From: Alphaproteobacteria bacterium
GTDB taxonomy: Bacteria; Pseudomonadota; Alphaproteobacteria; CACIAM-22H2
DNA length: 27,547 nt
Direction of reading: 5' to 3'
Assembly: GCA_031403455.1 (NCBI GenBank)
Contig: JANNTF010000037.1
Coordinates: 1-27,547 of the forward strand
Shown here one piece after another: positions 1,645-23,646 of this stretch; position 1 is the stretch's first letter, and every line of letters starts with the position of its first letter. The position numbers and the translations under genes were made by a program. The notes beneath the pieces were generated by a model. The model worked only from the letters and a program-made list of their open reading frames with translations. It did no database searches and had not been told where the DNA came from.

Positions 1645-1654
1645 TGCCGTCGCC

Positions 1655-2569: not shown

Positions 2570-3569
2570 AACGAATGCGGGGATTGACGACTCCGTACAG
2601 CACATCGACCAGCAGATTGACGACGACGACCATGAGCGCGAGCAGCAGCACGCCGCCTTGCACGACCGGATAGTCGCGGCGATAGACGCCTTCAAGCAGC
2701 CATTTGCCGACGCCGGGCCAGCTGAAAATCGTCTCCGTCATCACGGCGCCGGTAACCAGCACGCTGACCTGCAACCCGATCACGGTGATCACCGGGATCA
2801 GCGCGTTGCGCAGCGCGTGCACGTTCACAACCCGCCAGGACGAGAGCCCCTTGGCGCGCGCGGTGCGCACATAATCGTCGTTCAGGACCTCGAGCATCGC
2901 CGAGCGAGTCATGCGCGCGATCACGGCCAGCGGATAGGTGGTGAGCACGAGTGCCGGGAGAATCAGATGCCGCACCGCCGATACGAAGGCGCCCGGTTCA
3001 TCGACGAGCAGCGCATCGATGAGCATGAATCCCGTGATCGGCTCGAAATAATACTGCACATCGAGACGCCCGGAGACCGGTGTCCAGCCCAGCGTGCCGG
3101 AGAACAGCAGGATCAACAGCAAGCCCCACCAGAACACCGGCATCGAATAGCCGGAGAGCGCGAGGGTGATGGTGGCGTGATCGACGACCGAGCCGCGCTT
3201 CACGGCGGCGAGGATGCCGGCCGGCAATCCGACGACCAGTGCGATCAGCAGCGCGGTGAGTCCGAGTTCCAGGGTCGCCGGCAGCAGCGTCAGGAATTCC
3301 GTGAGCACCGATTGCGACGTGCCGATCGAGCGCGACAGATCGCCATGCAGAAGGTTCGCGACGTAGGCAAGATATTGCTCATGCAGCGGTCGGTCGAGGC
3401 CGAGCATGGCCATCGCGCGCGCACGGCCGGTCGCGTTCAGGCCCATCTCTCCCATCATCACCACGACCGGATCGCCGGGTATCAGTCGGATCAATGCGAA
3501 CGTGACCAGCGTGATCCCGATCATCGTCGAGACGACGCGCAGCAGGCGACCGACGACGAAGCCGAGCAT
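2559..3569 (-). CDS. dppB: Dipeptide ABC transporter permease
   Basis: LIPGDP, LGLDRPL..QY, PVSGR...TGFMLID (DppB clade), EAA loop RSAMLEVLNDDYVRTARAKGL, RDYPVVQG, NPRIR end. Confidence 0.94.
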   Translation of the reverse strand: MLGFVVGRLLRVVSTMIGITLVTFALIRLIPGDPVVVMMGEMGLNATGRARAMAMLGLDRPLHEQYLAYVANLLHGDLSRSIGTSQSVLTEFLTLLPATLELGLTALLIALVVGLPAGILAAVKRGSVVDHATITLALSGYSMPVFWWGLLLILLFSGTLGWTPVSGRLDVQYYFEPITGFMLIDALLVDEPGAFVSAVRHLILPALVLTTYPLAVIARMTRSAMLEVLNDDYVRTARAKGLSSWRVVNVHALRNALIPVITVIGLQVSVLVTGAVMTETIFSWPGVGKWLLEGVYRRDYPVVQGGVLLLALMVVVVNLLVDVLYGVVNPRIRYAR

Positions 3570-3624
3570 GCGCGTCGCCTAGACTGGCTTGGATGCCGGC
3601 CGGAAACTCATCCCGCGACCGGCA

Positions 3625-4548
3625 TCAGGCGACCTTGGCGCGCGCAGCCGGCGTGCCGACCAGTCCCAGCTCCGACGCGAGCTTCCGAGCTTGTACGATC
3701 TGCTCGGCGTTCAGGAGATCGCCCGGGTTTCGCGTCGACCCGAGCGGCACACCGCGCAGACGGCAGACCTCCTTGATCCAGGCGTAATAGATGGCGGGGG
3801 TGGTCGCCATACGCTGGATCGGGTCGATGCGATCGTTGAGCGCCCGCGCCGCCTTCATGTCCTGCGCGACGCAGGTCAGTCGCCACAGTTCGACCGCGTG
3901 CTCGGGGATCATGTTCGACGGCCCTGCGACCCAGCCGACCGCGCCGAGCGCCATCGACGGAAAGGCGAGCGTATCGACGCCTTCGAAGATGGCGAAGCGG
4001 TCGCCCGCCATCGCGCGCAGCAGCGTGACATGGTCGATCACACCGGTGGTCAGCTTGACCCAGGGGATGTTGGCCCGGTCGGCGATGCGCACGATGTCGG
4101 CCGGGGTCAACAGGACCTGATGCGCATAGGGGGCGTTATAGAGCATGACCGGCGTGTCGACCGCGTCCGACACCGCGGCGTAGTGGCGGACCACCGCGTC
4201 GATCGTCGGTCGACCATAGAAAGTCGGAGTCAACAACAGGCCGTCGGCGCCGAGCGACTTCGCGTGCTTCGCCCACTGCACGGCCCCGCGCGTCGCGGCA
4301 GCGCTGGCGCCGACCAGGACCGGCACGCGGCCACGCGCATGCTCGATCGCCGTCGCCGCGAGTTGCATGCGCTCCGCCTCATCGAGGGAAGCGAACTCGC
4401 TGGTCGCGGCATTGGTGATGATCGCCTGGACGCCGCCGGCGATGACATGGTCGATCAACGCGCGATAGGCGCCAAGATCGATGCGCTCGCCATCCGCGGA
4501 GAACGGCGTCAGCAGCGGGGTCACGATTCCCTGGAGTTTCTTCGGCAT
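3625..4548 (-). CDS. Dihydrodipicolinate synthase (DHDPS/NAL) family class I aldolase/lyase, probably not a true DapA
   Basis: TPLLTPF, MLYN (catalytic Tyr), WVK (Schiff-base Lys), EGVD, GAVGWV. The GTTGE motif is AATSE and the Arg of YNVPxR is absent (YNAPYA). SD-like GAGGA upstream. Confidence 0.88.
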   Translation of the reverse strand: MPKKLQGIVTPLLTPFSADGERIDLGAYRALIDHVIAGGVQAIITNAATSEFASLDEAERMQLAATAIEHARGRVPVLVGASAAATRGAVQWAKHAKSLGADGLLLTPTFYGRPTIDAVVRHYAAVSDAVDTPVMLYNAPYAHQVLLTPADIVRIADRANIPWVKLTTGVIDHVTLLRAMAGDRFAIFEGVDTLAFPSMALGAVGWVAGPSNMIPEHAVELWRLTCVAQDMKAARALNDRIDPIQRMATTPAIYYAWIKEVCRLRGVPLGSTRNPGDLLNAEQIVQARKLASELGLVGTPAARAKVA

Positions 4549-4606
4549 GCGGCGTTCCTCTTCGCATCATCATCGAGCGGCGAGTTCGCCGCCCCGAGTG
4601 GGTGTC

Positions 4607-4636
4607 ACCGTAGGGAGTGCGCGAGGTGTCGGTCAA
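4607..4636 (-). promoter_or_regulatory. Candidate sigma70 promoter for the aldolase-dppBCDF operon
   Basis: Minus strand TTGACC-N18-TACGGT (-35 at 4636-4631, -10 at 4612-4607), about 60 nt upstream of the ATG at 4548. Confidence 0.45.
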
Positions 4637-4878
4637 ACCCTGGAGCGTTCTGCTAATGAAACCGGTCCGCCTCGATCTCTCATGTCACCCCTGCCTTGCG
4701 GGGCCCGGCCAGGTGCCGCCGGCGGCGAGCAAAACCCGCAGATACGAGACACAAACAACGCTCCCGATTGTGTAACATGAATTGACGAAACCCAGCCGCG
4801 CCGGGGGAGCGAGCGGTAGAGTCTTCAGTTGCAAGCGGCGTTGCGAGGCAGCAATGCCGTGGAAGGAGTACCCCCGGC

Positions 4879-6144
4879 GTGGACGACAGCTTCAACACTG
4901 CCGCGATGCAGAAGCCCAAGCGCAGCGCGCTGTTGCGCTGGGTGGTCTGGCTGGCGCTCATCGCCATGATCGCCGGCGCGGCGATCTGGTGGTTTCGTCC
5001 CGTGCGCGAGGCATCGGAAGCGCGGATCGGCCGCTTCCAGGCACCCGGTCCGACACCCGTGGTCGTCGCCACGGTGGAGCGGGGTGCGCTGCCGCTCGTG
5101 GCACGGGCGCTCGGCACGGTGACGCCGCTCGCGACGGTGACGGTGCGCACACAGATCAACGGCCAGATCACCAAGATCGCCTTCCAGGAAGGGCAGCGCG
5201 TCAATCAAGGCGACTTCCTCGCCGAGATCGATTCGCGTCCGTACAAGAATGCGCTCGATCAGGTCGAGGGGCAGCTGCTGCGCGACCAGGCGCTGCTGCG
5301 CAACGCCGAGACGGATCTCGCCAGGTATCGCCGGCTGTTCACGCAAGACTCGATCGCGCGCCAGCAGCTCGACACGCAGGAAAACCTGGTGCGTCAGTAT
5401 CAGGGCACGGTCAAGACCGACGAGGCGCTGGTCAGCAACGCGCGCCTCAACCTCGCCTATTGCCGCATCGTCGCGCCGATCTCGGGCCGCATCGGCCTGC
5501 GTCTCGTGGACCAGGGCAATTACGTCCAGACCGGCGACGCGAGCGGCATCATCGTGATCACGCAGACGCAGCCGATCACGGTGACCTTCACGCTGCCCGA
5601 GGATACGCTGCCGGCGATCCTCAAACGCCTGCGCGAAAACGCGACGCTGCAGGCGACGGCGCTCGATCGTCGCGGCGTGCAGACGCTCGCCACGGGCGCG
5701 CTCACCAGCATCGACAATCAGATCGATCCCGCGACAGGCACGGTCAAGCTGCGCGCGCAGTTCGTCAATGCGGACGAGAGTCTGTTCCCCAATCAATTCG
5801 TGAATATCCGGCTGCTCGTCGACACGCGTCGCGACGTCGTGATCGCGCCGACGGCGGCGATCCAGCGCGGCGTACCGGGCACCTATGTCTACGTTCTTAA
5901 CGCGGATCAGACGGTCGCGGTCAGAGCGGTCGAGCTCGGACCCGCCGATGGCGAACGGACGATCATCGAGTCCGGACTGGATGCGGGCGCGATCGTCGTG
6001 GTCGACGGCGCCGACCGCCTTCGCGAAGGCGTGCGCGTCGCCGTGCCGGATGCGGCGCGCGCGCCCGATGGCGCGGCCCCTGCCGCGCGCGGCCAGGGAC
6101 GCCGCCCAGGCGGCAGCGAGCGCCGCGGCCAGCCGGCGCCCTAG
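4879..6144 (+). CDS. mdtA: RND efflux membrane fusion protein, MdtA/MuxA type
   Basis: N-terminal TM, ALGTVTPLATVTVRTQING, FQEGQRV..GD.LAEID.RPY, IDNQIDPATGTVKLRA, LFPNQFVN, VVDGADRLREG. Start is GTG 4879 or ATG 4906. Confidence 0.92.
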   Translation: MDDSFNTAAMQKPKRSALLRWVVWLALIAMIAGAAIWWFRPVREASEARIGRFQAPGPTPVVVATVERGALPLVARALGTVTPLATVTVRTQINGQITKIAFQEGQRVNQGDFLAEIDSRPYKNALDQVEGQLLRDQALLRNAETDLARYRRLFTQDSIARQQLDTQENLVRQYQGTVKTDEALVSNARLNLAYCRIVAPISGRIGLRLVDQGNYVQTGDASGIIVITQTQPITVTFTLPEDTLPAILKRLRENATLQATALDRRGVQTLATGALTSIDNQIDPATGTVKLRAQFVNADESLFPNQFVNIRLLVDTRRDVVIAPTAAIQRGVPGTYVYVLNADQTVAVRAVELGPADGERTIIESGLDAGAIVVVDGADRLREGVRVAVPDAARAPDGAAPAARGQGRRPGGSERRGQPAP

Positions 6145-6153
6145 GTCGACGGC

Positions 6154-9100
6154 GTGAACATCTCGCGGCTCTTCATTCTCCGACCCGTCGGCACGTCCCT
6201 GCTGATGATCGCGATCCTGCTGATTGGCGCGGTCGCCTACCGCTTCCTGCCGCTCTCCGCCTTGCCCGAGGTGGATTATCCGACGATCCAGGTCCAGACC
6301 TTCTATCCCGGCGCCAGCCCCGAAGTGATGACCTCGGCCATCACCGCGCCGCTCGAGCGACAATTCGGGCAGATGTCCAACCTCGTGCAGATGTCGTTGA
6401 GCAGCTCCGGCGGCGCTTCGGTGATCACCTTGCAGTTCAGCCTCGCGATCAACCTCGACATCGCGGAGCAACAGGTCCAGGCCGCGATCAATGCGGCCGG
6501 CAACTTGCTGCCGGGCGATCTTCCCGCGCCACCGATCTACGCCAAGGTCAATCCCGCCGACGCCCCGATCCTGACGCTGGGCCTGACCTCGGCGACGTTG
6601 CCCCTGACCCAGGTGCAGGACCTCGCCGACACGCGCCTGGCGCAACGCATTTCGCAGCTGCCGGGTGTCGGCCTGGTCAGCATCAGCGGCGGGCAGCGTC
6701 CCGCCGTGCGCATCCAGGCCAATCCGACGGCGCTGGCCGCCTATGGCCTCAATCTCGACGATCTGCGCACCACCATCGCCTCCGCCAACGTCAACACGCC
6801 CAAGGGCAATTTCGACGGGCCCACTCGCGCCTACACGATCAACGCCAACGACCAGCTCAAGAGCCCGCAGGAGTACCGCGATCTCGTCGTCGCGTTTCGC
6901 AACGGGGCGCCCGTGCGCCTCGCCGAGGTGGCGCAGGTCGTGATGGGCGCCGAAAACATGCGCCTCGGCGCCTGGATGAACGAGACGCCCGCGGTGATCC
7001 TCAACGTCCAGCGCCAGCCCGGGGCGAACGTCATCGAGGTCGTCGATACGATCAAGGCCGTGCTCCCCGCCCTGCGCGGTGCGATGCCGGCCGGTATCGA
7101 GATCGCGGTGCTCACGGATCGCACCGTGACCATCCGCGCCTCGGTGCGTGACGTGCAGATCGAGCTCGGGCTCGCCGTCGGCCTCGTGGTGCTCGTGATC
7201 TTCCTGTTCCTGCGCAATGTGCCCGCGACCGTGATCCCCAGCCTCTCGGTGCCGCTGTCGCTGGTAGGCACGTTTGCGGTCATGTATCTGGCCGGCTTCA
7301 GCCTCAACAACCTGTCGCTGATGGCGCTGACCATCGCCACCGGCTTCGTGGTCGACGACGCCATCGTGATGATCGAGAACATCACGCGCCACGTGGAGCG
7401 CGGCGACTCCCCGCGCGACGCCGCCCTCAAGGGTTCGCGCCAGATCGGATTCACGATCGTGTCGCTCACGGCGTCGCTGATCGCGGTGCTGATCCCGCTG
7501 CTCTTCATGCGCGAGGTCGTGGGCCGGTTGTTTCGCGAGTTCGCCGTGACCTTGGCGGTCACGATCCTGATTTCGGCCGTCGTGTCGCTGACCCTCGTCC
7601 CCATGCTGTGCGCGCGCATCCTCCGCCGCCACGATGTGCGGGAGGAAGGCGCGATCGCACGCAGCGGGCGGCTCTGGTTCGATGCGTTGATCCGCTTCTA
7701 CGGCCGCATCCTGACACGCGTGCTCGACCACCAGGTCGCGACGCTGGTCGTTGCCGTGGCCACGCTCGCGCTCAGTGTCGCGCTCTTCGTGATCGTGCCG
7801 AAGGGCTTCTTTCCCGTGCAGGACACCGGCCTCATCCAGGGCGTCTCGGAAGCGCCTCAATCGGTCTCCTTCGCGGCCATGGCCGAGCGTCAGCAGCTCC
7901 TCGCCCGCATCATCCGGCGCGACCCCGATGTGGAGAGCCTGTCCTCCTTCATCGGCGTCGACGGCGCGAACATGACGCCCAATAGCGGCCGCTTCCTGAT
8001 CAATCTGAAGCCCCGGGAGGTGCGCTCGAGCACGGCCAGCGATGTGATCCGGCGCATCGACGCCGCCACGTCGGGCATCCCCGGACTCACGCTCTATCTC
8101 CAGCCGGTACAGGATCTGACGATCGATTCGAAGATCAGCCGCACGCAGTATCAATTCATCCTCGTAGCGCCGAACCCGGCCGAGTTCAGCATCTGGGTGC
8201 CGCGCCTCGTCGAGCGTCTGCGCAACTCGCCCGTGCTCGAGGGCGTCGCGACGAGTCTGCAGGCGGAAGGCCTCGCGCTGGACGTCACCATCGATCGCGA
8301 CACCGCCGCGCGCTACGGCATCACGCCGGCAACCGTCGACAACGCGCTCTACGGCGCGTTCGGACAGCGCATCGTCTCCACGATCTTCACGCAATCGAAC
8401 CAGTATCGCGTGATCCTCGAAGCGGATCCTGTCATGCACGACTCGATCGCCTCGTTGGCGATGATCCATCTGCCGTCTTCCGTCACCAGCGGCAAGCAGG
8501 TCCCGCTCTCCGCGATCGCCACGATCACGCAGCGCACGGCGCCGATGCAGATCGATCACCTCGGTCAGTTCCCATCGACGACCGTATCCTTCAACGTGGC
8601 GCGCGGCGCCTCGCTCGGCGAGGCGGTCGATGCCGTGCGCGATGCGGCACGCGAGATCGGCCTGCCGCCGAGCATCATGACGAGCTTCCAGGGCGCGGCG
8701 CTGGCGTTCCAGGCATCGCTCGTCAACGAGCTGCTGCTGATCCTCGCCGCCATCGTCACGATGTATATCGTTCTCGGCGTGCTCTACGAGAGCTACATCC
8801 ATCCGATCACGATCCTCTCCACGCTGCCCTCGGCGGGCGTCGGCGCGCTGCTCGCCTTGATCCTGGCCGGCAGCGAACTCGACGTCATCGCGTTGATCGG
8901 CATCGTGCTGCTGATCGGCATCGTGAAGAAGAACGCGATCATGATGATCGACTTCGCGCTCAGCGCGCAGCGCGAGGACGGCATGACGCCGCGCGAGGCG
9001 ATCTATCAGGCTTGCCTGCTGCGCTTCCGGCCGATCCTGATGACGACGATGGCGGCGCTGCTCGGCGCGCTTCCGCTGATGCTCGGCGGCGGCACCGGAT

Positions 9101-9249
9101 CCGAGCTGCGTCATCCGCTCGGGCTGACCATCGTCGGCGGGCTGATCGTCAGCCAGGTGCTGACGCTGTTCACGACGCCGGTGATCTACCTCGCTTTCGA
9201 TCGCCTCGCGACGCGGCTGCGTGGCCAGGCGGCCGGCGCCGCGCCATGA
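6154..9249 (+). CDS. mdtB: RND efflux permease, MdtB/MuxB type
   Basis: [65 protein letters not shown] (DD pair), [25 protein letters not shown]. Confidence 0.95.
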
Positions 9250-12200
9250 ATGTCTCCGAGGCGTTCATCCGGCGTCCCGTCGCGACGACGTTGCTGACCC
9301 TCGGCCTGACGCTGGCCGGCGCGGTCGCCTTCTTCCTGTTGCCCGTCTCGCCGCTGCCCAAGGTGGACTACCCGACCATCTCGGTCGCCGCGCATATGCC
9401 CGGCGCGAGCCCCGAGACGATGGCGACGAGCGTGGCGACGCCGCTCGAGCGGCATCTCGGGCAGATCGCGGGCGTCACCGAAATGACCTCGTCGAGCACG
9501 CTCGGATCGACCCGCGTGACGCTGCAATTCGATCTCGCGCGCGACATCGACGGCGCGGCACGCGATGTCCAGGCGGCGATCAACGCCTCCCGCGCGGATC
9601 TGCCCGCGAGCCTGCGCAGCAATCCGACCTACCGCAAGGTGAACCCGGCCGACGCGCCGGTCCTCATCGTGGCCTTGACCTCGCGGACGCTGGCGCAGGG
9701 CCAGATCTACGATGCGGCGACGACGATCCTCGAACAGCGACTCTCGCAGATCGAGGGCGTCGGGCAGGTCAATCTCGGCGGCAGCTCGCTGCCTGCGGTG
9801 CGCGTCGAGATCAATCCCCGCGCCTTGTTCAAGTATCGGATCGGACTCGAGGACGTGCGCGCGGCGATCGCCGCGGCGAACGCCAACACGCCCAAGGGCG
9901 TCATCGAGGAAGGGCCGCGGCGCTATCAGATCTACACCAACGACCAGGCAAGCCGCGCCGACGAATATCGCTCGCTGATCGTGGCGCAGCGCAACGGCGC
10001 GCCGGTCCGTCTCTCGGACATCGCGGAGATCGTCGACTCGGTCGAGAATCTGCGCAACCGCGGCGTCGCCAATGGCCGACCCTCCGTGCTCGTCCTGATC
10101 TACCGGCAGCCCGGCGCGAACATCATCGAGACCGTGGATCGCGTGAAGGCGGCCTTGCGCGAGATCGAGGCGTCGATGCCGTCCGATATCGACATGACGC
10201 TGGCCGTCGACCGCACCACCACGATCCGCGCTTCACTGCGCGAGGTGGAGCGCGCGTTGCTGCTCTCGGTCGTGCTGGTGATCGCGGTCGTGTTCCTGTT
10301 CCTGCGCGATGCGCGCGCGGCGCTGATTCCCAGCGTCGTGGTCCCGGTCTCCCTGATCGGGACGTTCGGCGCGATGTACCTGCTCGGCTACAGCCTCAAT
10401 AATCTTTCGCTGATGGCGCTCGCGATCGCCACCGGCTTCGTGGTCGACGACGCCGTCGTGGTGCTGGAGAACGTCTCGCGCCACGTCGAGGCCGGGCTGT
10501 CGCGCATGGAGGCCGCCTTGCGCGGCGCGCGCGAGGTCGGGTTCACGGTGCTGTCGATGAGCCTGTCGCTGATCGCCGTCTTCATTCCGATCCTGCTGAT
10601 GGGCGGCATCGTCGGCCGGCTGTTTCGCGAGTTCGCCGTCACGCTGTCGGTGGCGATCCTGATCTCGCTCGTGGTGTCGCTGACGACGACGCCGATGCTC
10701 TGCGCGCATCTCCTGTCGTCCGGCCCGCCGCGCCCACCGGGGCGCATCGGGCGCGTGATGGAGCGCGGCTTCGCGGCGTTGCGCGCCGGTTACGGCCGGA
10801 GCCTCGCCTTCGTGCTGCGGCACGGCGTGCTCGTGCTCCTCGCGCTGGCCGCAATCCTCGCGCTCAACTTCCACCTCTATGTCACCATTCCCAAGGGCTT
10901 CTTCCCGCAGCAGGACACCGGCCGCATGGTCGGCGGCATCCAGGCCGATCAGGGCATCTCGTTCCAGCTGATGCAGCAGAAGCTCGGGCAGTTCACGACG
11001 ATCCTGCAGTCGGATCCGGCGATCGACAGCGTCGTGGGATTCACCGGCGGCGGTCAGACCAATTCGGGCTTCTTCTTCATTTCGCTCAAGAGCATCGCGG
11101 AACGCAAGATCTCCGCCGATCAGGTCATCGCGAGACTGCGCGTGCGGCTCGCCACCGTCGCCGGCGCACGGCTCTTTCTGCAGCCGGTCCAGGACATCCG
11201 CATCGGCGGGCGACAGAGCAATGCGCAGTTCCAATACACGCTGCAAGGGGACGACCTCGCCGAGTTGCTGGTCTGGGCGCCGCGCATCGCCGAGGCGCTG
11301 CAATCCGTGCCCGAACTCGTCGACGTCAATTCGGACCAGCAGGATCGCGGCCTGCAGACGGATCTGGTGATCGATCGCGAGGCGGTCGCGCGCTACGGGC
11401 TCACGATGAGTCAGATCGACAATACGCTCTACGACGCGTTCGGCCAGCGGCAGGTCTCGACGATCTATACGCCGCTCAACCAGTATCACGTGGTGATGGA
11501 GGTCGCGCCGGAGTTCTGGCAATCGCCCGACACGCTGCGTGAGATCCATATCAGCACGACCGGCGGGGCGGTCGGCGGCACGCAAGGCACCAATGCCGCC
11601 GCTGGCACGGTGACCAGCACGAACACGACGCAAACGGACCCGAGCGCCGACACCGCACGCAACCGCGCGGCAAATCTGCTCGCCAATCGCGGCCGCGCGG
11701 GGGCTTCCACCGGCGCCGCGGTGAGCACCCGCGCGGCGACCATGATCCCGCTCTCCGCGGTCGCGCAATGGGGTCCGGGCCGTGCGCCCCTCGGCGTCTA
11801 TCACCAGGGGCCGTTCGTCGCCGCCACGATCTCTTTCGCCGTCCCGCCCGGCGTGTCGCTCAGCGCGGCGGTCGGCGCCATCGAGGCGGTGATGAATCGC
11901 ATCGGCGTGCCGACCTCGATCCATGGCAGCTTCCAGGGTACGGCGCGCGCCTTCCAGCGCTCACTGGACTCGCAGCCCCTCCTGATCCTCGCCGCGATCG
12001 TCGCGGTCTACATCGTGCTCGGCCTGCTCTACGAGAGCTTCATCCATCCGCTGACGATCCTGTCGACCCTGCCATCCGCAGGTGTCGGCGCCCTGCTCGC
12101 CTTGATGCTGTGCGACACCGAATTCTCGATCATCGCCCTGATCGGCGTCATTCTGCTGATCGGGATCGTCAAGAAGAACGCGATCATGATGATCGATTTC

Positions 12201-12515
12201 GCGCTCGATGCGCAGCGCACCCGTGGCATGGCGCCGGCCGAGGCGATCCGCGAGGCCTGCGTGCTGCGCTTCCGCCCGATCATGATGACGACGCTGGCCG
12301 CGCTGATGGGGGCGTTGCCGATCGCGATGGGTCTGGGTGCCGGGGCTGAGTTGCGCCAGCCGCTCGGCCTGGCGGTGGTGGGCGGCCTGGTGTTCTCGCA
12401 GGCAATCACGCTCTACATCACGCCGGTGATCTATCTCGCACTCGACCGTTTCAGCGGCAAGGGCCCGGTCACGACGCCCGAAGGCGCTGCGCTCGCCACC
12501 GAAAAATCAGTGTAG
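9246..12515 (+). CDS. mdtC: RND efflux permease, MdtC/MuxC type (last about 100 aa may come from a different RND clade)
   Basis: ATGA overlap with the mdtB stop; [98 protein letters not shown]. Confidence 0.9.
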
Positions 12516-13028
12516 GTGCGTGCCGCCGGGCGCGGTGTTCATCACTGTGAACACCGGCTGGTCGACGGTGCTGGCTTCGATCTCGGTTTCGGACGCCTCT
12601 CGCACATCGCGCACGACCAGATCCAGGCGCAGCGCGATGCCGGCGAGCGGGTGATTGCCGTCGAGCACCACGTGGCTTTCGTAGACCTCGGTCACGGTGT
12701 AGGCCAGGTCGGTTGGCATGCCCTGCGTGGTGGCGCCTTCAGGCACGCCGTCGAACTGCATGCCGATCTCGATCTCATCGGGAAACAGCGAGCGTTCCTC
12801 GAAGAAGACGAGTGCGGAATCGTAGTCGCCGAACGCGTGCTCGGGCTCGAGGTGCAAGGCCGCCTCGAAGCCGGTGGTCTGGCCGATCAGGGCCTCTTCG
12901 ACGCGGGCGAGCAGGTCGTCGCCACCGACGAAAAATTCGACCGGGTCTTCAAGTTCGTCGATGGCATTGCCTTGGGCATCTTGAAGTCGCCAGGTCAGGC
13001 TGACGACGCATGGAACGGTGATGAGCAT
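12507..13028 (-). CDS. slyD: FKBP-type peptidyl-prolyl cis-trans isomerase, SlyD-like, without His-rich tail
   Basis: [46 protein letters not shown]. Start placed at [11 protein letters not shown] (ATG 13028). Confidence 0.85.
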
Positions 13029-13053
13029 CACAAGATCATCGCACAATCACTCC

Positions 13054-14196
13054 ATGGACATCACTCGAGCCACGCCCCTGCTCGGCGGTATTTCACCGCA
13101 GACTTTCATGCGCCGGCACTGGCAAAAAAAGCCGCTGCTGATCCGCCAGGCCGTACCCGGCGGGCTGGTACTTCTGAGCCGTGCGGAACTGTTCGAACTG
13201 GCCGCGCGTGACGATGTCGAGTCGCGTCTGATCGTGCGCGCCGCTGGCGCCTGGTCGATGCGCCACGGGCCGTTCAAACGCCGCGCGATCCCGAGCCTCA
13301 AGAGCAGCGGCTGGACTTTGCTGGTTCAGGGCCTGGACCTGCATGTCGGCGCCGCGCACGCGCTGCTGCAGCGTTTTCGCTTCGTGCCCGACGCGCGGCT
13401 CGACGACCTGATGCTGTCGTATGCGAGTGACGGCGGCGGTGTCGGCCCGCACCTCGATTCCTACGACGTGTTCCTGCTGCAGGTGCAGGGCCGGCGGCGC
13501 TGGCGCATCGGCCGCGCCCGCGACAAGACCTGGGTGCCCGACGTGCCGCTGAAGATCCTGGCCCACTTCGAACCCGAGCATGAATGGCTGCTCGAACCGG
13601 GCGACATGCTCTACCTGCCGCCCGGCTGGGCCCACGACGGCGTGGCCGACGGCGAGTGCCTGACCGCGTCGATCGGCTTTCGCGCGCCGGGCCGCGACCA
13701 GCTCGGCCGCGAACTGTTGCAGCGCCTGCTCGACGATGCCGAGGCGGTGTCGGAAGAGGTGTTGTACCGCGACCCGAAACAGGCGGCGACAAGCCAACCC
13801 GGGCGCATCCCGGCCGAACTGCGTGCTTTTGCGCTCGACGCGATGGCCCGCGCGCTCGCCGACGAACAAGGCCTCGACTGCACGCTGGGCGAAGTGCTCA
13901 GCGAGCCCAAACCCGGCGTCTGGTTCGACCCGGCGGTGGCTGCGGCGGGTGCGCAGGGCGTGTCGCTCGACCGCCGCACCCGCATGCTCTACGACACGCG
14001 TCACGTGTTCATCAACGGCGAGTCTTTTCGAGCCGGCGGGCGCGACGCAAAATTGATGCACCGTCTCGCCGATCGCAGAAGCCTGAGCGCCGCAGAACAT
14101 GGTCTGCTGAGTACCGAGGCGCGCGCGCTGCTCGAGGGCTGGTCCCATGACGGCTGGTTGCATGCCGGCGCCGCAACGAACGAAGGAGAAGCCTGA
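13054..14196 (+). CDS. roxA: JmjC/cupin 2-oxoglutarate oxygenase, RoxA/YcfD (ribosomal protein uL16 arginine hydroxylase) family
   Basis: WQKKPLLIR, WTLLVQ, RLDDLMLSYA.DGGGVGPHLDSYDVFLLQ (HxD), LEPGDMLYLPPGWAHDG (distal His), SIGFRAP. Confidence 0.85.
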   Translation: MDITRATPLLGGISPQTFMRRHWQKKPLLIRQAVPGGLVLLSRAELFELAARDDVESRLIVRAAGAWSMRHGPFKRRAIPSLKSSGWTLLVQGLDLHVGAAHALLQRFRFVPDARLDDLMLSYASDGGGVGPHLDSYDVFLLQVQGRRRWRIGRARDKTWVPDVPLKILAHFEPEHEWLLEPGDMLYLPPGWAHDGVADGECLTASIGFRAPGRDQLGRELLQRLLDDAEAVSEEVLYRDPKQAATSQPGRIPAELRAFALDAMARALADEQGLDCTLGEVLSEPKPGVWFDPAVAAAGAQGVSLDRRTRMLYDTRHVFINGESFRAGGRDAKLMHRLADRRSLSAAEHGLLSTEARALLEGWSHDGWLHAGAATNEGEA

Positions 14197-14681
14197 TGAA
14201 CGTGTCCGACGCCGTGATCACTTCACGCAGCGAGTTCCACACCGCCGTGCGAGATGCCTTCGCCGAAGCTGCCGGTGTGGGCTGTCGCGAACTGCTGCTC
14301 TGCGACCCTAGTTTCGCCGACTGGCCGTTGGGGGAGCGCGCCGTCGTGGAGCATCTCGCGCTGTGGGCCGCGTCGCACCGGCGCCTCACGCTGTTGGCCG
14401 AGGACTTCTCGGAGCTCGCAAGACGCCATCCGCGCTGGGTCGAGTGGCGCCAGACATGGGCGCATGTGGTGCACTGCCGCACCAACACCGAGCTCGAAGC
14501 CGGGCAGATGCCGACCATTCTGCTCGCGCCGGGCCTGTTGAGCGTGCGGCTGTCCGACGCACTTCACCACCGCGGCCAGCGCACTCACGAGGTTGCCGAA
14601 GGCCTGCGCTGCCGCGAGCTGTTTGATGCGGTTTTGCAACGGTCGGAAGAGGCCTTTCCGGCGTCGACGACCGGCCTCTAG
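14196..14681 (+). CDS. Hypothetical protein translationally coupled to roxA
   Basis: TGATG stop/start overlap, GGAG upstream, coding-like codon use, 161 aa globular alpha/beta pattern. Confidence 0.75.
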   Translation: MNVSDAVITSRSEFHTAVRDAFAEAAGVGCRELLLCDPSFADWPLGERAVVEHLALWAASHRRLTLLAEDFSELARRHPRWVEWRQTWAHVVHCRTNTELEAGQMPTILLAPGLLSVRLSDALHHRGQRTHEVAEGLRCRELFDAVLQRSEEAFPASTTGL

Positions 14682-14707
14682 GGAATCTCCCTAGAGCTGG
14701 CTATAAT
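14676..14707 (+). promoter_or_regulatory. Perfect palindrome CTCTAGGGA-ATC-TCCCTAGAG over the -35 position, followed by -10 TATAAT
   Basis: 9-bp inverted repeat at 14676-14696; consensus TATAAT at 14702-14707, upstream of the lipoprotein gene. Confidence 0.55.
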
Positions 14708-14828
14708 CGAAGGCTAGGCACAGGAAGCGCTCGATCTTTCCATGCCTGAGAACGTTGGGGCTCTGCGAAGGCTGGGGTTCCCACAATGACCGGTAATTGT
14801 TCGACCCTAATGATCTTTGAGGACACAC

Positions 14829-15173
14829 ATGAATAAGTCGCTTCTGCTTGCTTCCCTCGTCGCCGCTGTTGCTCTTGCCGCTTGCGGCAAGAAGGAAGAG
14901 GCTCCCGCTGCTGCTGCAGCTTCGGCCGCTGCTGCGCCGATGGTGGCTGCCGCTGCTTCGGCCGCTGCCAGCGCTGTTGACACCGCCGCTTCGGCTGCCA
15001 TGGCTGCCGCTTCTGGTGCGATGGGCGCCGCTTCCGCCGGCACCGCGATGGCCGCCGATGCCATGAAGGATGCTGCTGGCAAGGCTGCCGATGCTGCCAA
15101 GGACGCTGCTGGCAAGGCTGCCGACGCTGCCAAGGACGCCGCGGGCAAGGCTGCCGACGCTGTCAAGAAGTAA
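14829..15173 (+). CDS. Small Ala/Lys/Asp-rich lipoprotein with 11-aa repeats
   Basis: MNKSLLLASLVAAVALAA-C lipobox, GAGG SD, many GCT codons (high-expression style), followed by a terminator. Confidence 0.85.
   Translation: MNKSLLLASLVAAVALAACGKKEEAPAAAAASAAAAPMVAAAASAAASAVDTAASAAMAAASGAMGAASAGTAMAADAMKDAAGKAADAAKDAAGKAADAAKDAAGKAADAVKK
15066..15164 (+). repeat. 3 x 33-bp tandem repeat encoding KDAAGKAADA(A/V)
   Basis: Units at 15066-15098, 15099-15131 and 15132-15164 differ mostly at synonymous positions. Confidence 0.92.
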
Positions 15174-15191
15174 ATCGGCTCACGCCGGTTG

Positions 15192-15221
15192 CGAAAAAGC
15201 CGCCTTCGGGCGGCTTTTTCG
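15192..15221. terminator. Bidirectional rho-independent terminator
   Basis: CGAAAAAGCCGCC-TTCG-GGCGGCTTTTTCG: perfect 13-bp stem, C(UUCG)G loop, U-tracts on both strands, between convergent genes. Confidence 0.93.
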
Positions 15222-15246
15222 TTCTTGCAGTTCTCGAGCGCAGTTC

Positions 15247-15960
15247 TCAAGCGTCGCTCTGTTGCGGCGATCTGTCGGGCGGCCCGTCACTCCGCACCTG
15301 GTACGCACCCAACATGATCAACAGGGGCAGGCAGGCCTCGAGCGTTTCCTCCATCGTCTGCGCCCAGACGGCCGCAGACAGCGGGAGCACGATCCGAAAG
15401 TCTTCCACCAGTACGCCGACGCCCCGGTCGAATGTCTTGGACGCCACCCCGATCAGGAAGAACATCAGGACCGTGATGGCCAGGGGACGTGCCTGTTTCA
15501 GAGCCCGCAGCAACGGCCCGGCGTGTCGCACGGTCAGGTAGCCCATCGCCAGCACGAACAGGCCAATGACTGCGAGCGCGACCAACTTCGTCTGCAGCGG
15601 GGCGTGGCCGTAGTAATACGACACCCGCAGCAAGCTGTCGTTGGCGTCGGTGCGGTGCAGATCGAGTTCGCGCGCGACCAGCCCAGCACTGCCGATCACG
15701 AGTGCCGCCGGTGTCTTCCAGCCCGATCCGGACCCTGCCGCGACCAGAACAGCGGCCATGGCAAAGCCGTAAAGAACGGCGGTCGCATTTTCCACCGGGC
15801 CGCCTTCGGCCACGAACGCCGCGACACTGTTAGCCGGCAAGGCGGCCCAGGCGAGCGTGGCCACCACGATGGTCACCACCGGCAACCAGAGCGAAACGAA
15901 CGGCCCCCGCAGGAAGGCCGAAGCCCGCGGCCGTGAGGGGTTGGATGGATCGTGATTCAT
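15247..15960 (-). CDS. Hypothetical integral membrane protein (about 6 TM)
   Basis: Repeated hydrophobic segments with intramembrane acidic residues (EGGPVEN, ARELD, MEETLE); codon use consistent with coding. Confidence 0.72.
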   Translation of the reverse strand: MNHDPSNPSRPRASAFLRGPFVSLWLPVVTIVVATLAWAALPANSVAAFVAEGGPVENATAVLYGFAMAAVLVAAGSGSGWKTPAALVIGSAGLVARELDLHRTDANDSLLRVSYYYGHAPLQTKLVALAVIGLFVLAMGYLTVRHAGPLLRALKQARPLAITVLMFFLIGVASKTFDRGVGVLVEDFRIVLPLSAAVWAQTMEETLEACLPLLIMLGAYQVRSDGPPDRSPQQSDA

Positions 15961-16049
15961 GGGTTGCTGCCAAGGGCAGTATCGACGGCGAATGCGAACG
16001 TATCGCAGCGCACTCTACAGCGTCAGATGGTTCGCGCCGCCCCGGACCT

Positions 16050-16826
16050 TCAGCACACGTCGAGCCAGCCGAAGCCCAGCGCCGGATCGGCCACGACGAT
16101 GTCGTTCGGCAGTGCGCCGCAAGCCTGCGCGAGCGCGGCGCGCGCCAGGTCGGGCCGGTTGTTTTGGCCACTCAGGTGCGCCGCCACCAGGTGGCGCAGG
16201 CCGCTGTGGAGGCAGGCGCGCAGGATCTCTGCGGCCGTGTCATTCGACAGGTGACCGTAGCGCCCGCCGATGCGCGCTTTCAGCGACGCCGGGTAACGCG
16301 ACTGCTCCAGCATGTCGCGGTCGTGGTTGCATTCCAGCAGCAGCGCGTCGCAGCCTTGCAGGTTCTCGAGCAGATGCGGCGTGATCGATCCGACGTCGGT
16401 CAGCACACCCAGGTGGTGGGCACCATCCGATATCCGAAGTTGCAGGGGCTCCTGCGCGTCATGGGCCACTGTATAGGGGTTGAGTATCAGGTCAGCAACG
16501 ACGATCGCCTGGCCGTCGCGCGCGAATTGCAACAGCCCTTCCATGTCGGGCTCGCCGATGGCCCGCCAGGTGCCGCGGCTCATCCACAGCGGCAGGCCGT
16601 GGCGGCGCGACAGCGTCATCGCACAGCCGACGTGGTCGCCGTGTTCGTGGGTGATGAACACCGCGTCGAGGTCCTGGCTGGACAGGCCGGCGCGGGCCAG
16701 GCGGGTTTCGAGCTCGCGGGCCGAAAAACCACAGTCGATCAACAGCCGGCTTGTGCGCGAGCCGCTGGTGGTCTCGACCACGGTGGCGTTGCCACCGCTG
16801 CCGCTGCCCAGGCTGCAAAAACGCAT
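16050..16826 (-). CDS. MBL-fold metallo-hydrolase, YycJ/WalJ-like
   Basis: SLGSGSGGN, LLIDCG, THEHGDH (HxHxDH), HDAQEP, TDVG, LECNHD, GHLSN, AHLS..NN. Confidence 0.92.
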   Translation of the reverse strand: MRFCSLGSGSGGNATVVETTSGSRTSRLLIDCGFSARELETRLARAGLSSQDLDAVFITHEHGDHVGCAMTLSRRHGLPLWMSRGTWRAIGEPDMEGLLQFARDGQAIVVADLILNPYTVAHDAQEPLQLRISDGAHHLGVLTDVGSITPHLLENLQGCDALLLECNHDRDMLEQSRYPASLKARIGGRYGHLSNDTAAEILRACLHSGLRHLVAAHLSGQNNRPDLARAALAQACGALPNDIVVADPALGFGWLDVC

Positions 16827-16850
16827 GGCCGGGCGAGCGCCGAACGCCCG

Positions 16851-17999
16851 CTACTTCAGTTCTTCGAGCAGGGTGGCGGCGATGCGTTTTCCGGCTTCGC
16901 TGTTCTCGGGGGCGCCTTGCCCGTCGAGCACGCTGACGACACTGCGTTCGCCCGAACTCTTGACCGAAACGCGGTACTTGGCCGGGCCACTGTCGTTTTT
17001 ATCCAGCCCAAACAGCTTGGCGAAGAAACCGGGTTCTTCCTTGCCCATGTTGGCGGGGTCGACGTAGCGCACGAAGTACAGGCCCTGCGTGCGGTCACGG
17101 TCTTCGACCGTGAAGCCGCTGCGGTCGAGTGCCACGCCGACACGGCGCCACGCGCGGTCGAAGCCGTCGTCGACCTGCAACGTCACTGCTGTCTGGCCCT
17201 CGACGATGCGCGCGCGCGCAGGCGCACCGGTGGCAGCCGGAGAAATGCCCGCAGCCTTCGCGGCTTCTTCCTGAGCGCCGAGCTTGAGCATCAGGCGCGA
17301 GAGGAATTCGCCTTCGAGTTGTGGCTCGGCCGGGCGTGGTTGCCAGATCGTGTTTTCCTTGCTCTGGCCAGTGACGACTTCGATCATTCCGCGGTGGGTG
17401 ATGTAGATCTCGGTGCCGGCGCCGTTGCGCTCGATGCGGGTGCGGAACTTGTCGCGCTCGCCGGTCGAGTACAGACCGTCGAGCACCTTGCCGATTGATG
17501 AGCGAATGAAGTCTTGCGGAAGCTTGGCGCGGTTTTCGGCCCAGTCGGTTTCCATCACGCCGGCCTTCGGCTCGTCGGTGGCGAGCCTGAAGCCACGTTC
17601 TTTCCAGAACGCCTGGAGCTGCGGCCAGAGTTGTTCTGGCGTCAGGCTGCTGCTTAACCAGCGCTCGTTGCCGAGCCGTTCGATGCGCATATCACCAATG
17701 GCTTGCGGCGCGATCGTGACCGGCACCGAAGCCGCGGCTGCCGGTGCCGCGGCGGACGCAGCGGTCTGGTATGACGCTGCACTCACCGCCGCACCCTGCG
17801 TTTGCTGGTAGCGCGAGTCGCGGGTCAGTTGTGTCAGGTCCGGCGGCACGTCAAGGCCGGCGGTCTTTTCACCTTTGCTGCGGTAGTCGATCTTGTCGCC
17901 ACTGAGCGTGTCGCCGACGACGGTACACCCGAACAACGACGACAGTGTGGTGGCCAGCACGAGGCCGCGCAGCGAAACGATGGAAAGGGAACGGCTCAA
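16851..17999 (-). CDS. bamC: Outer membrane protein assembly factor BamC (NlpB/DapX) lipoprotein
   Basis: TTG start at 17999 with GGAGA SD; lipobox SLFG-C; KIDY, LDVPPDLT, GVMETDWAENRAK, TGERDKFRTRIER, FDRAWRRVG.ALDR..FTVEDRDR; directly downstream of dapA. Confidence 0.92.
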   Translation of the reverse strand: MSRSLSIVSLRGLVLATTLSSLFGCTVVGDTLSGDKIDYRSKGEKTAGLDVPPDLTQLTRDSRYQQTQGAAVSAASYQTAASAAAPAAAASVPVTIAPQAIGDMRIERLGNERWLSSSLTPEQLWPQLQAFWKERGFRLATDEPKAGVMETDWAENRAKLPQDFIRSSIGKVLDGLYSTGERDKFRTRIERNGAGTEIYITHRGMIEVVTGQSKENTIWQPRPAEPQLEGEFLSRLMLKLGAQEEAAKAAGISPAATGAPARARIVEGQTAVTLQVDDGFDRAWRRVGVALDRSGFTVEDRDRTQGLYFVRYVDPANMGKEEPGFFAKLFGLDKNDSGPAKYRVSVKSSGERSVVSVLDGQGAPENSEAGKRIAATLLEELK

Positions 18000-18085
18000 G
18001 TGTTTCTCCGGAAAGGGGCGGACAAGCGATGCGCATTGGCGCGGCGCCCCGTCAGTGGGTGAGGGGTGAGCGCGGGGCGCGCGCG

Positions 18086-18967
18086 TCAAAGCAGGCCGGC
18101 GTCGAGCAGGGCCTGCCCGACCACCGCTTGCCCTGCGGGCGTGAGCGGCGTGATCGGCAGGCGCAGGGCAGGGCCGCACAGGCCGAGCTCGGCCATCGCC
18201 CACTTGGTGGGCGCGGGGCTCGGTTCGACGAACAAATGGGTGTGCAGCGGCATCAGTTTCAGGTGAATTGCTGCCGCTTCGCTGGCGCGGCCGGCCATCG
18301 CCGCCACGCACAGCTCGTGCATCAATTTCGGCGCCACGTTGGCCGTGACACTCACGTTGCCGTGGCCACCCAGCAGCATCAGCGCAACGGCCGAGCCGTC
18401 GTCGCCCGAATAGACCGAGAAGCCGGCCGGCGCGCGCTTGATCAGCCACGAGGCGCGGTCGATTTCGCCGGTGGCTTCTTTCACGCCGACGATCCCCGGC
18501 ACCTGCGCCAGACGCAGCGTGGTCTCGATCTGCATATCGGCCACCGTGCGGCCGGGCACGTTGTACAGCATCATAGGGATGTCGACCGCCTCGGCGATTG
18601 CCCTGAAGTGGCTGTAGATGCCTTCCTGCGACGGCTTGTTGTAGTAGGGCACGACCGACAGGGTGCAGTCGGCGCCGACCTTCAGCGCGTAGCGCGAGAG
18701 CTCGATCGCCTCGGCGGTCGAATTGCCGCCCGCGCCGGCCATGATCGGCACCCGCCCTTTGGCGTGCTCGACGGCCACGCGGATGATTTCACAGTGCTCC
18801 TCGACCGACACGGTCGGCGACTCACCTGTCGTGCCGACCACGCCGACGCAGTCGGTGCCCTCGGTCACGTGCCAGTCGATCAGGCGGCGCAGGCCGGGGT
18901 AGTCGATGCTGCCATCTTCCAGCATCGGCGTGACGAGCGCCACGATGCTGCCGTTGATAACTTTCAT
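18086..18967 (-). CDS. dapA: 4-hydroxy-tetrahydrodipicolinate synthase
   Basis: [55 protein letters not shown]; canonical dapA-bamC linkage. Confidence 0.96.
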
Positions 18968-18989
18968 GCGGGTTCCTCAGAATCCCGAG

Positions 18990-18995
18990 ATTTTA
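18990..18995 (-). promoter_or_regulatory. Candidate -10 (TAAAAT) for dapA-bamC
   Basis: Minus strand GGTAAAAT, about 22 nt upstream of the dapA ATG, followed by SD GAGGA. Confidence 0.45.
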
Positions 18996-19020
18996 CCTGC
19001 CCGAGCAGGCCCGGCTGGCC

Positions 19021-19572
19021 CTAGAGCCGGTAGCGCGCCGGTGCGGCCCCGCCGGCGGGTTCGCGCACGGCGACCAGCCGTTGCACGAAGCGCTCGGGGC
19101 CGCTCGCGAAACCTTCTTCGAACGCCACCACCCGCAGACCCTGCGCGGCCTGCAGAAGTTCACCCGGCTGCAGCAGAAACTTAGGGTTCGAGGGTTTGCC
19201 GACAGTCTCGTTGCCGGCGCTGAAGGTTTCGTAGATCAGCACGCCGCCCTCGGCCACGCTGCCGACCAGCGTCGGCAGCAGCTCGCGCCAGAGGTAGTTG
19301 GTGACCACCACCGCGTCGAAACGCCGGCCCGCCAGCGGCCACGGGCCCGATTCGATGTCGGCCAGCACCGCTTCGGCGATGCCTCGCGACAGCGCCAGCG
19401 CCGCTTCATCACGGTCGACGCCTGTGACTCGACAACCGCGCTGCGCAAACCAGCGCAGATGCCGGCCCGAGCCGCAGGCCACGTCAAGCACAGTAGCGCC
19501 CTGTGCCACGAGGTGCGCCCAGCGTTGCACCCACACCGATGCGGCGCCACCGCCGTGTGGCAAATTCGGCAT
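19021..19572 (-). CDS. Class I SAM-dependent methyltransferase
   Basis: VLDVACGSGRH (motif I), VTGVDRD, ADIE, FDAVVVTNYL, GGVLIYETF. Confidence 0.9.
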   Translation of the reverse strand: MPNLPHGGGAASVWVQRWAHLVAQGATVLDVACGSGRHLRWFAQRGCRVTGVDRDEAALALSRGIAEAVLADIESGPWPLAGRRFDAVVVTNYLWRELLPTLVGSVAEGGVLIYETFSAGNETVGKPSNPKFLLQPGELLQAAQGLRVVAFEEGFASGPERFVQRLVAVREPAGGAAPARYRL

Positions 19573-19695
19573 CTAGAAACAGCTCCAGAGTTGGTCCGCC
19601 AGCGTCATCGCGATCTCGGGTCGCAGGTAGGCGGCGAACACGAGCAGCAGCACGGCCGCCGACGCTGCCCACACGAGCGCGCGACGCAGCCTCAT
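19573..19695 (-). CDS. 40-aa small membrane protein
   Basis: MRLRRALVWAASAAVLLLVFAAYLRPEIAMTLADQLWSCF. Its ATG overlaps the MFS stop (ATGA) and its TAG abuts the methyltransferase ATG. Visible only as the tail of the spurious ORF 19573..21576. Confidence 0.78.
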   Translation of the reverse strand: MRLRRALVWAASAAVLLLVFAAYLRPEIAMTLADQLWSCF

Positions 19696-20906: not shown

Positions 20907-20942
20907 CAGGGACTGTAGCCAATCGCCGCCTTGTCTGCAGTG

Positions 20943-23646
<2,704 letters not shown>

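Follow-up and report, generated by a model that had tools for sequence, protein, structure and literature searches.

In MuxABC-OpmB, the gene for the outer-membrane factor ends the operon. In mosaic genes, such as the penA/pbp genes of Neisseria and Streptococcus, the partners are close relatives that share long tracts of high identity, and two crossovers are present. Interspecies chimeric contigs have been described in CAMI data, where they reportedly affected 69% of the near-complete MAGs from MEGAHIT and 20% of the MAGs from metaSPAdes (bioRxiv 10.64898/2026.10.15.759294). The window analyzed here is the whole of contig C37 (27,547 nt), the longest contig of G000, a fragmented MAG of 6.1 Mb in 1222 contigs that is 89.5% complete and 7.56% contaminated. 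The alphaproteobacterial part of this contig resembles the MdtABC/MuxABC-OpmB operon in harboring mdtA, mdtB and an MdtC-like second permease gene, and in the close relative L102 this operon likewise ends with an OEP gene. However, in G000 the OEP gene sits on another contig, C992, outside the window. As described below, C37 is almost certainly an interspecies misassembly, in which two unrelated bacteria are joined inside mdtC.

Two lineages within one open reading frame

The segments of the window, and the features at and to the left of the junction, are as follows.

1-12164, no strand: alphaproteobacterial segment (Stellaceae/Telmatospirillum-like), assigned by collinearity, composition and depth
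4879-6144, plus strand: mdtA/muxA-type periplasmic adaptor gene, alphaproteobacterial (NF008589, 417.8 bits, above the cut-off of 391)
6154-9249, plus strand: mdtB/muxB-type RND permease gene, alphaproteobacterial (NF007798, 1621 bits, above the cut-off of 1584)
9246-12515, plus strand: chimeric ORF read as mdtC, from per-region identities
12151-12211, no strand: crossover interval, from diagnostic sites and sliding identity
12165-12196, no strand: identical 32-nt stretch encoding 11 residues, from the exact-run table
12197-27547, no strand: Burkholderiales segment (Rhizobacter-like, Sphaerotilaceae/Burkholderiaceae) of an abundant organism, assigned by collinearity, composition and depth

The left segment contains dppF, dppD, dppC, dppB, a DHDPS-like gene, mdtA, mdtB and the first ~973 codons of mdtC. 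Positions 1-12448 of the window are collinear with 713-13203 of the JGI contig L102 at 85.8% identity, and the left half is also collinear with the NCBI contig L103 and, through mdtC, with genomes of the MAG's own genus and family (G008, G011 and G010). The right segment begins with the 3′ end of an RND gene, followed by a slyD-like gene, roxA, hypotheticals, an MBL hydrolase gene, bamC and dapA, and continues with genes for a methyltransferase, an MFS transporter, a truncated AKR, parE, a GNAT protein, an acyl-CoA ligase and an sbtA-like transporter, and the start of a LysR gene. Its principal genes are the following.

12507-13046, minus strand: slyD-like FKBP peptidyl-prolyl isomerase gene (NF008008, 5.6e-18, below cut-off; same position in L007)
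13018-14196, plus strand: roxA-type JmjC ribosomal oxygenase gene (PF08007, PF20514)
16851-18080, minus strand: bamC, NlpB/DapX lipoprotein (PF06804, 2.1e-39)
18086-18967, minus strand: dapA (TIGR00674, 339.9 bits)
21694-23646, plus strand: parE, topoisomerase IV subunit B (TIGR01055, 690 bits)

Window positions 11952-23858 are collinear with 8935-21176 of the Burkholderiaceae MAG L007 at 86-91% identity, and L008 and L010 show the same arrangement; in all three of these Burkholderiaceae/Rhizobacter MAGs the collinearity begins inside their own RND gene. The distance from the RND stop codon to the roxA start, 503 nt, is equal in the window and in the Burkholderiales MAGs. A search with RoxA returned 572 Burkholderiales-type loci, the best of them that of L007 at 91% protein identity, and the exact RoxA protein, looked up in public assemblies, was not on record there. 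The earlier note had read the left genes as alphaproteobacterial and the right side as carrying a Burkholderiales gene order; named database matches agree with the former, and the collinearity with the Burkholderiaceae/Rhizobacter MAGs with the latter.

The two lineages meet within the ORF at 9246-12515. Codons 1 to ~973 are alphaproteobacterial and MdtC-like, while from about codon 985 the ORF represents the 3′ end of an RND gene of Burkholderiaceae origin. Indeed, residues 1-975 show 91% identity to alphaproteobacterial homologues and 42% to the Burkholderiales proteins. Over residues 991-1089, identity to the L007 RND protein is 100%, compared with 65-70% to the closest alphaproteobacterial MdtC homologues (only 5-11% over the last 19 residues), which bears out the previous suggestion that the MdtC tail comes from another RND clade. 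The best model for the ORF is NF007905 (MdtC), with 1494.8 bits against an equivalog cut-off of 1774 and with its best stretch limited to residues 4-771; as the top-scoring model nonetheless falls below its cut-off, the gene is MdtC-like and not an equivalog. The last ~100 codons derive from the RND gene of another organism, and the ORF should therefore not be regarded as a natural gene. A hybrid MdtC of this kind was absent among the best database matches listed, in which P0003 and P0004 have alphaproteobacterial-type tails.

Diagnostic nucleotide sites are of alphaproteobacterial type up to 12150 and of Burkholderiales type from 12212, with a conserved motif of 15 residues in between. Within this interval, positions 12165-12196 are identical in the window, in the alphaproteobacterial references L102 and L103 and in the Burkholderiales references L007 and L008, and they probably correspond to the de Bruijn graph node that joins the two paths. 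A 26-mer previously noted as common to mdtB and mdtC indeed occurs exactly twice, at 8926-8951 and 12171-12196. Exact searches of JGI metagenome contigs with flanks specific to each lineage, 12126-12164 on the alphaproteobacterial left and 12210-12250 on the Burkholderiales right, gave no match; like the lack of listed hybrids and of the exact RoxA protein, this absence is uninformative for a rare organism.

A rival reading is real inter-class recombination, in which the alphaproteobacterium gained at least 15 kb of Burkholderiales chromosome by a crossover in the conserved 32-nt RND word and now carries a working hybrid MdtC plus Burkholderiales core genes, with no mobile element. In its favor, the crossover falls in a stretch of identity and the frame is kept, leaving the mdtC ORF intact. 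However, 32 nt of identity is, in our judgement, short for RecA-type recombination between classes, and the depth and gene-content data described in the following sections make this event, hybrid pump and core genes included, very improbable.

Composition and depth across the junction

Composition changes at ~12.3 kb. The earlier note had reported, by rough hand count, a fall in GATC sites between two 600-nt windows on the left and two on the right, in which we count 7, 10, 2 and 3 sites, respectively. Over the whole contig, GATC density is 16.1/kb for positions 1-12200 versus 6.9/kb for 12201-27547, with a genome median of 13.1/kb; the right part falls in the lowest ~1% of the genome's 5-kb chunks, and a Poisson change-point lies at ~12780 (2dLL = 54.9). 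The caveat attached to the earlier count, that it was partly confounded by isoleucine content, proved unneeded, as matching local densities are found in the relatives of either lineage (15-16/kb in L102/L103 and 6-8/kb in L007/L008/L010). By TNF distance to G000, the right part lies at percentile 98-99, while the left part ranks at 56-93%, which is typical. The left part has a 5-mer LLR of +25/kb and the right part one of −20/kb, as in L007/L008/L010, with a change-point at 12292, though the loci used to train the Burkholderiales 5-mer model are syntenic to the right half, which may somewhat inflate its LLR. GATC, TNF and 5-mer LLR thus all shift at 12.3-12.8 kb. GC content is 65-69% in both halves and is uninformative.

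The earlier note had also proposed looking for a coverage step across 12100-12300, and such a step is present in two source-like sequencing runs from freshwater sediment, X1 and X2, which cover 0.95 and 0.89 of the junction-region words. In the exact Logan contigs listed, the left side has depths of 6.8, 8.07, 6.64 and 4.47 in X1 and of 7.33, 9.18 and 4.16 in X2, while the right side has depths of 50.6, 48.9, 46.3 and 51.8 in X1 and of 45.7, 46.2, 55.9, 50.7 and 46.2 in X2, all of these being assembler word depths, which are inflated in conserved bins. The step is therefore 7-10-fold in each run (left 4-9, right 46-56), in contrast to the equal depth expected of one replicon under recombination. 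In addition, X2 Logan contig record 11 (k=31, depth 4.16) stops at 12194, the end of the last 31-mer that contains G12164 and thus precisely the point from which the 31-mers are shared. Both Burkholderiales references have C at this position; the alphaproteobacterial reference L102 also has C, and the G is thus not diagnostic of the alphaproteobacterial lineage. No Logan contig bridging the junction was found among the pieces listed, beside which there are a further 4228.

By itself, a depth step would also be produced by a very recent, identical transfer, carried either by the rare organism or by a minor strain of the abundant one.

Redundant genes and the continuation of the alphaproteobacterial operon

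Two single-copy genes in the foreign part of C37, parE and dapA, have counterparts elsewhere in the bin. A second parE on C239/C413 shows 86-89% identity to same-genus relatives and 72-77% to same-family relatives, whereas the C37 ParE is only 40-44% identical to the relatives' proteins; judged by these sequence identities, the C239/C413 parE is that of the bin's own lineage. A second true dapA is located on C608 (TIGR00674, 345.9 bits), and two dapA genes in the MAG thus score above cut-off. This redundancy argues against recombination, as does the nature of the block, which is ordinary core chromosome (bamC, dapA, parE) in its native Burkholderiales order, with neither a mobile element nor a second junction present.

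The fate of the alphaproteobacterial operon points in the same direction. C992 begins inside the OEP gene, 6 nt from the start of that gene. In L102 the OEP gene comes after mdtC, as it does in G008, G011, G010 and L103. C992 carries the alphaproteobacterial organism's true gene downstream of mdtC, as if the alphaproteobacterial locus were intact, which again counts against recombination. The arrangement seen in C37 combines elements found together in neither lineage: in the alphaproteobacteria mdtC leads into the OEP gene, and in the Burkholderiales relatives it is their own RND gene that precedes slyD.

The right half of C37 is the sole Burkholderiales-like DNA of at least 3 kb in the bin, as would be expected of a single island gained by recombination. 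Among the other G000 contigs of at least 3 kb (n=754), a Burkholderiales-like 5-mer score was sought and none lay below +4.3. The region upstream in the Burkholderiales relatives (L007/L008 1-9000) had no match in G000 at ≥78% identity, and other contigs of the Burkholderiales organism are therefore absent from the bin. The Burkholderiales fragment was binned only because it is attached to the alphaproteobacterial half.

We also considered general Burkholderiales contamination of the bin, which is ruled out by the 5-mer scores of all other contigs of at least 3 kb.

Origin of the joint and comparison with known systems

The junction, its position and its two source lineages are all as the earlier note described. 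Of the two origins that it offered, an assembly chimera formed at a shared k-mer is favored by the depth step, the end of the k=31 contig, the duplicate parE and dapA genes and C992, and by the same four lines of evidence a real homologous recombination making a hybrid pump is unsupported. The weakest reading, that a minor strain of the abundant Burkholderiales organism gained the alphaproteobacterial dpp-mdtABC block, such that the low depth on the left is strain-specific and the high depth on the right common to all strains, would reproduce the depth step but is exceedingly improbable, given that the left 12.2 kb is indistinguishable in composition from the rest of the 6.1-Mb alphaproteobacterial MAG and remains collinear with alphaproteobacterial relatives right up to the end of the contig, without any second junction, that the fragmented MAG indicates a low-coverage alphaproteobacterium in the sample, which together with ordinary graph error already accounts for everything, and that C992 shows the intact alphaproteobacterial continuation.

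We count as established that C37 has two origins, with a breakpoint at a word common to both and a step in depth, that essential genes are redundant, and that the alphaproteobacterial operon continues on the orphan contig C992; it is on these points that the case for a misassembled C37 rests. The route through the graph is inferred. One freshwater-sediment sample would have contained the low-coverage alphaproteobacterium of the MAG and a Burkholderiales organism ~7-10-fold more abundant, each with an MdtB/C-like RND permease gene encoding a nearly invariant segment of 20 residues. The two permease genes share an identical run of no fewer than 32 nucleotides (12165-12196), which would have fused the alphaproteobacterial and Burkholderiales paths in the assembly graph, and the assembler probably entered by the former and left by the latter. 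The outcome would be a hybrid-looking mdtC ORF that runs on into 15 kb of chromosome from the Burkholderiales organism. The true alphaproteobacterial continuation, presumably a ~315-nt mdtC tail and then the outer-membrane factor gene, would have lost the tail, with the remainder ending up as C992. With little room for doubt, neither the hybrid pump nor the 15 kb of foreign DNA is biology, and both are artefacts of assembly.

For data hygiene and quality control, it matters that the longest contig of the MAG is half foreign. Taken at face value, the contig would lead to 15.4 kb of genes from Burkholderiales, among them parE, dapA, bamC and the sbtA-like transporter gene, being misassigned to an alphaproteobacterium, and a fictitious full-length, in-frame MdtC may be present in protein databases. 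The truncated AKR gene and the sbtA-LysR module (within 12.2-27.5 kb) belong to the Burkholderiales organism and not to the MAG organism.

C37 resembles mosaic penA/pbp genes in that ancestry changes in-frame within a conserved gene. In contrast to these genes, its partners come from different classes, with 42% protein identity upstream of the switch, and it has one junction, with a 7-10-fold difference in depth. The likeness to interspecies chimeric contigs is closer: the joint between two lineages falls in a conserved exact repeat no longer than, or about as long as, the k-mer or read length, it coincides with a break in coverage and composition, the bin has redundant marker genes, and such joints escape marker-based quality control. 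There is no essential difference, save that the C37 joint lies in an RND permease coding motif and not in an rRNA, a tRNA or an IS element. As this joint keeps the reading frame, its product resembles a plausible full-length gene, and C37 would provide a clean example of frame-preserving chimeras seeded by conserved coding motifs, beyond those at rRNA genes and IS elements.

Two gene neighbourhoods joined within mdtC

Comparison with reference genomes reveals that the contig is alphaproteobacterial on its left and Burkholderiales on its right, as the earlier note had proposed from gene style and order. Positions 1-12448 are collinear with two alphaproteobacterial references, L102 (a 67.8-kb JGI contig) at 85.8% and L103 (a contig of an NCBI MAG) at 85%, and three congeneric or confamilial genomes (G008, G011 and G010) align collinearly with 5004-12448 at 73-76%. 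Positions 11952-23858 correspond to 8935-21176 of L007, a locus from a Burkholderiaceae MAG, collinear at 86-91% as far as the retrieved sequence extends, and two further Burkholderiales loci, L008 and L010, align likewise. The genes are as follows.

673-4548, left: DHDPS-like gene upstream of dppB, dppC, dppD and dppF, without dppA
Left: mdtA/muxA and mdtB/muxB
9246-12515: MdtC-like permease (mdtC), with the junction at 12151-12211
Right, roxA starting at 13018: slyD-like PPIase, roxA, hypotheticals, MBL hydrolase, bamC, dapA, methyltransferase, MFS transporter
20943-21686, reverse strand: aldo-keto reductase
Right: parE, GNAT, acyl-CoA ligase, sbtA-like permease, start of a LysR gene

L102 and L103 share the DHDPS-like/dpp arrangement, which is therefore a conserved trait of this alphaproteobacterial lineage and part of the genuine left side of the contig. 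The named homologues of the MdtC-like permease come from Stellaceae, Telmatospirillum and unclassified Alphaproteobacteria. On the right, RoxA is 91% identical to that of L007 and 83-84% to those of Rhizobacter MAGs, and the 80 retained loci with RoxA matches are all labelled either as betaproteobacterial (Burkholderiales-type) or as unresolved Pseudomonadota; an exact search for the RoxA protein in public assemblies returned no match. In the Burkholderiales relatives, a native RND permease gene has its end at 9498 of the locus, and roxA follows after 503 nt; the same distance separates the mdtC stop (12515) from roxA (13018) in the window. Thus, the right-hand homology starts inside an RND gene native to Burkholderiales. 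Two blocks present in L007, L008 and L010 are absent from the aldo-keto reductase gene (gaps at ~21150-21164 and ~21335-21339), of ~108 nt and ~153 nt by comparison with L007 and L008 and of other sizes by comparison with L010. Logan contigs from two source-like public runs, X1 and X2 (depth 46-52), reproduce 20762-21751/2 exactly, so the abundant Burkholderiales organism really has these deletions and they did not arise in the MAG assembly.

The switch can be placed within the protein. MdtC residues 1-975 are 91% and 90% identical to the nearest alphaproteobacterial MdtC proteins, P0003 and P0004, versus 42% to the L007 RND protein, while residues 991-1089 are 100% identical to L007 versus 65-70% to P0003/P0004, falling to 5-11% over the last 19 residues; residues 976-990 are almost invariant in all compared proteins. 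The suspicion that the tail comes from another RND clade is right: the L007 gene is a more distant member of the same RND_permease_2 subfamily and no MdtC orthologue. Diagnostic sites, at which L102 and L103 agree and differ from both L007 and L008, are alpha-type in 60 of 63 cases up to 12152, the last at 12150, and from 12212 on the window is Burkholderiales-type in nearly all. Between them sits the stretch coding for a conserved 20-residue segment, and the window and the four references share every base of its 12165-12196 part (32 nt). Base 12164, the last before this shared word, is G in the window and L103 and C in L102, L007 and L008, and so differs from both Burkholderiales references. 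A scan of JGI metagenome contigs for the exact junction flanks gave no match. The periplasmic part of the alphaproteobacterial MdtC also has a low-complexity insertion rich in Ala, Thr and Gly (11580-11700, residues ~780-860), where genomes of its own genus and family align poorly (40-57% DNA identity). P0003/P0004 retain it (90-94% protein identity), and protein identity to the Burkholderiales RND proteins is only 22% over residues 801-900.

Composition of the contig and its bin

The source assembly (6.1 Mb, 1222 contigs, 89.5% complete, 7.56% contaminated, with the window as its entire longest contig) has the profile of a short-read metagenome-assembled genome. The GATC drop noted earlier in four 600-nt windows recurs on counting (7, 10, 2 and 3), and GATC density, tetranucleotide distance and 5-mer score all shift near the junction. 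To the left of 12200 the contig has 16.1 GATC per kb and to the right 6.9 (genome median 13.1/kb), with a Poisson change-point at ~12780 (2dLL = 54.9); a density as low as that on the right is seen in only ~1% of 5-kb genome chunks. By tetranucleotide distance to the remaining genome, chunks inside 1-12500 are unremarkable (56th-93rd percentile) and 12501-27500 lies at the extreme (98th-99th percentile). GC, at 65-69% across the contig, is unchanged at the junction. A 5-mer log-likelihood ratio of the rest of the MAG against Burkholderiales loci, trained with the three nearest loci excluded, is positive in 12 of 12 left 1-kb bins and negative in 16 of 16 right ones, with its cumulative maximum at 12292. 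The left scores +25.2 per kb (bin median +23) and the right -20.0, which may be slightly exaggerated because the Burkholderiales model was trained on loci that share synteny with this side; the held-out L007, L008 and L010 give -18 to -22. All 754 other contigs of at least 3 kb score +4.3 or higher, and by this measure the bin has no Burkholderiales-like DNA of that length apart from the right half. Six other contigs (C229, C274, C872, C1011, C910 and C63) are tetranucleotide and/or GATC outliers and are not Burkholderiales-like by 5-mer score; they could represent islands or additional contaminants, in keeping with the contamination estimate.

Depth, graph fork and the intact alphaproteobacterial locus

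Four independent lines, namely depth, a graph fork, redundant genes and a missing neighbour found on another contig, point to an artefact. The junction region is present in public runs that are freshwater-sediment metagenomes, and X1 and X2 contain 95% and 89% of sampled words of 10000-14500. Among the matches listed, Logan contigs with 0-3 mismatches to the window have left-side depths of 6.8, 8.07, 6.64 and 4.47 in X1 and 7.33, 9.18 and 4.16 in X2, versus right-side depths of 50.6, 48.9, 46.3 and 51.8 in X1 and 45.7, 46.2, 55.9, 50.7 and 46.2 in X2. Binned depths show the same step when conserved-motif bins are left out. A coverage step had been proposed as a check, and one of 7-10-fold cannot occur within one replicon. 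The X2 contig of depth 4.16 spans 11258-12194 and ends there. Logan contigs are assembled at k=31, and the last 31-mer including base 12164 ends at 12194; the contig therefore stops exactly where its k-mers become common to another sequence in the X2 sample.

The MAG holds a second parE on C239 and C413, whose product is 86-89% identical to ParE of same-genus and 72-77% to that of same-family genomes; the window ParE reaches only 40-44%, no closer than to those genomes' GyrB. A second dapA, above the equivalog cut-off, lies on C608. In L102 and L103 the next gene directly follows mdtC with a 4-nt overlap of its stop (called OEP in L102, cut by the contig end in L103), and its homologue likewise comes after mdtC in G008, G011 and G010. 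In this assembly that gene lies on a separate contig, C992 (2321 nt; L104:1-1530), which codes for an OEP-family protein and is of normal composition for the bin. Base 1 of C992 corresponds to L102 13267, which lies 3 nt beyond the mdtC stop and 6 nt inside the OEP gene, and the contig's identity to L102 (85.5%) reflects the same divergence as the left half. Because C992 starts just inside this gene, the sample contains the alphaproteobacterial locus intact; the bin lacks only the alpha-type mdtC tail of ~315 nt, in whose place the window has the Burkholderiales path. C992 should be scaffolded after ~12196 plus these ~315 nt, and its outer-membrane factor gene completes the organism's mdtABC operon.

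The depth step could be imitated by a genuine, very recent transfer of identical DNA; this is very improbable, as the intact locus on C992, the redundant parE and dapA, the single junction and the graph fork would all have to be coincidences. The alphaproteobacterial block could also sit in a minor strain within the abundant organism's population, which would imitate the step too; this demands the same four coincidences and is more improbable still.

Proposed origin of the chimera

Every concrete statement of the earlier note is confirmed; of its two readings, an assembly chimera is supported and a natural hybrid pump is not. Two organisms of very different abundance share at least 32 nt in the RND motif, which occurs a third time in the alphaproteobacterial organism's own mdtB (the repeated 26-mer noted earlier is present at 8926 and 12171). 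At small k this would give the graph a node that two paths enter and two paths leave. The alphaproteobacterial path, at only ~5x, would have offered the assembler little read support for resolving it, and the assembler probably carried that contig on into the well-covered Burkholderiales exit; the chimeric contig would then have been binned with the alphaproteobacterial genome. A search of the bin for the Burkholderiales organism's upstream region found nothing at 78% identity or more. The hybrid mdtC and the 15 kb attached to it are no real biological feature; the case serves as a warning against attributing either 12197-27547 or the printed "MdtC" protein to the MAG's organism. For CAMI benchmarks, interspecies chimeric contigs, which marker-based quality control misses, are reported from 69% of near-complete MAGs built with MEGAHIT and 20% of MAGs built with metaSPAdes (bioRxiv 10.64898/2026.10.15.759294).
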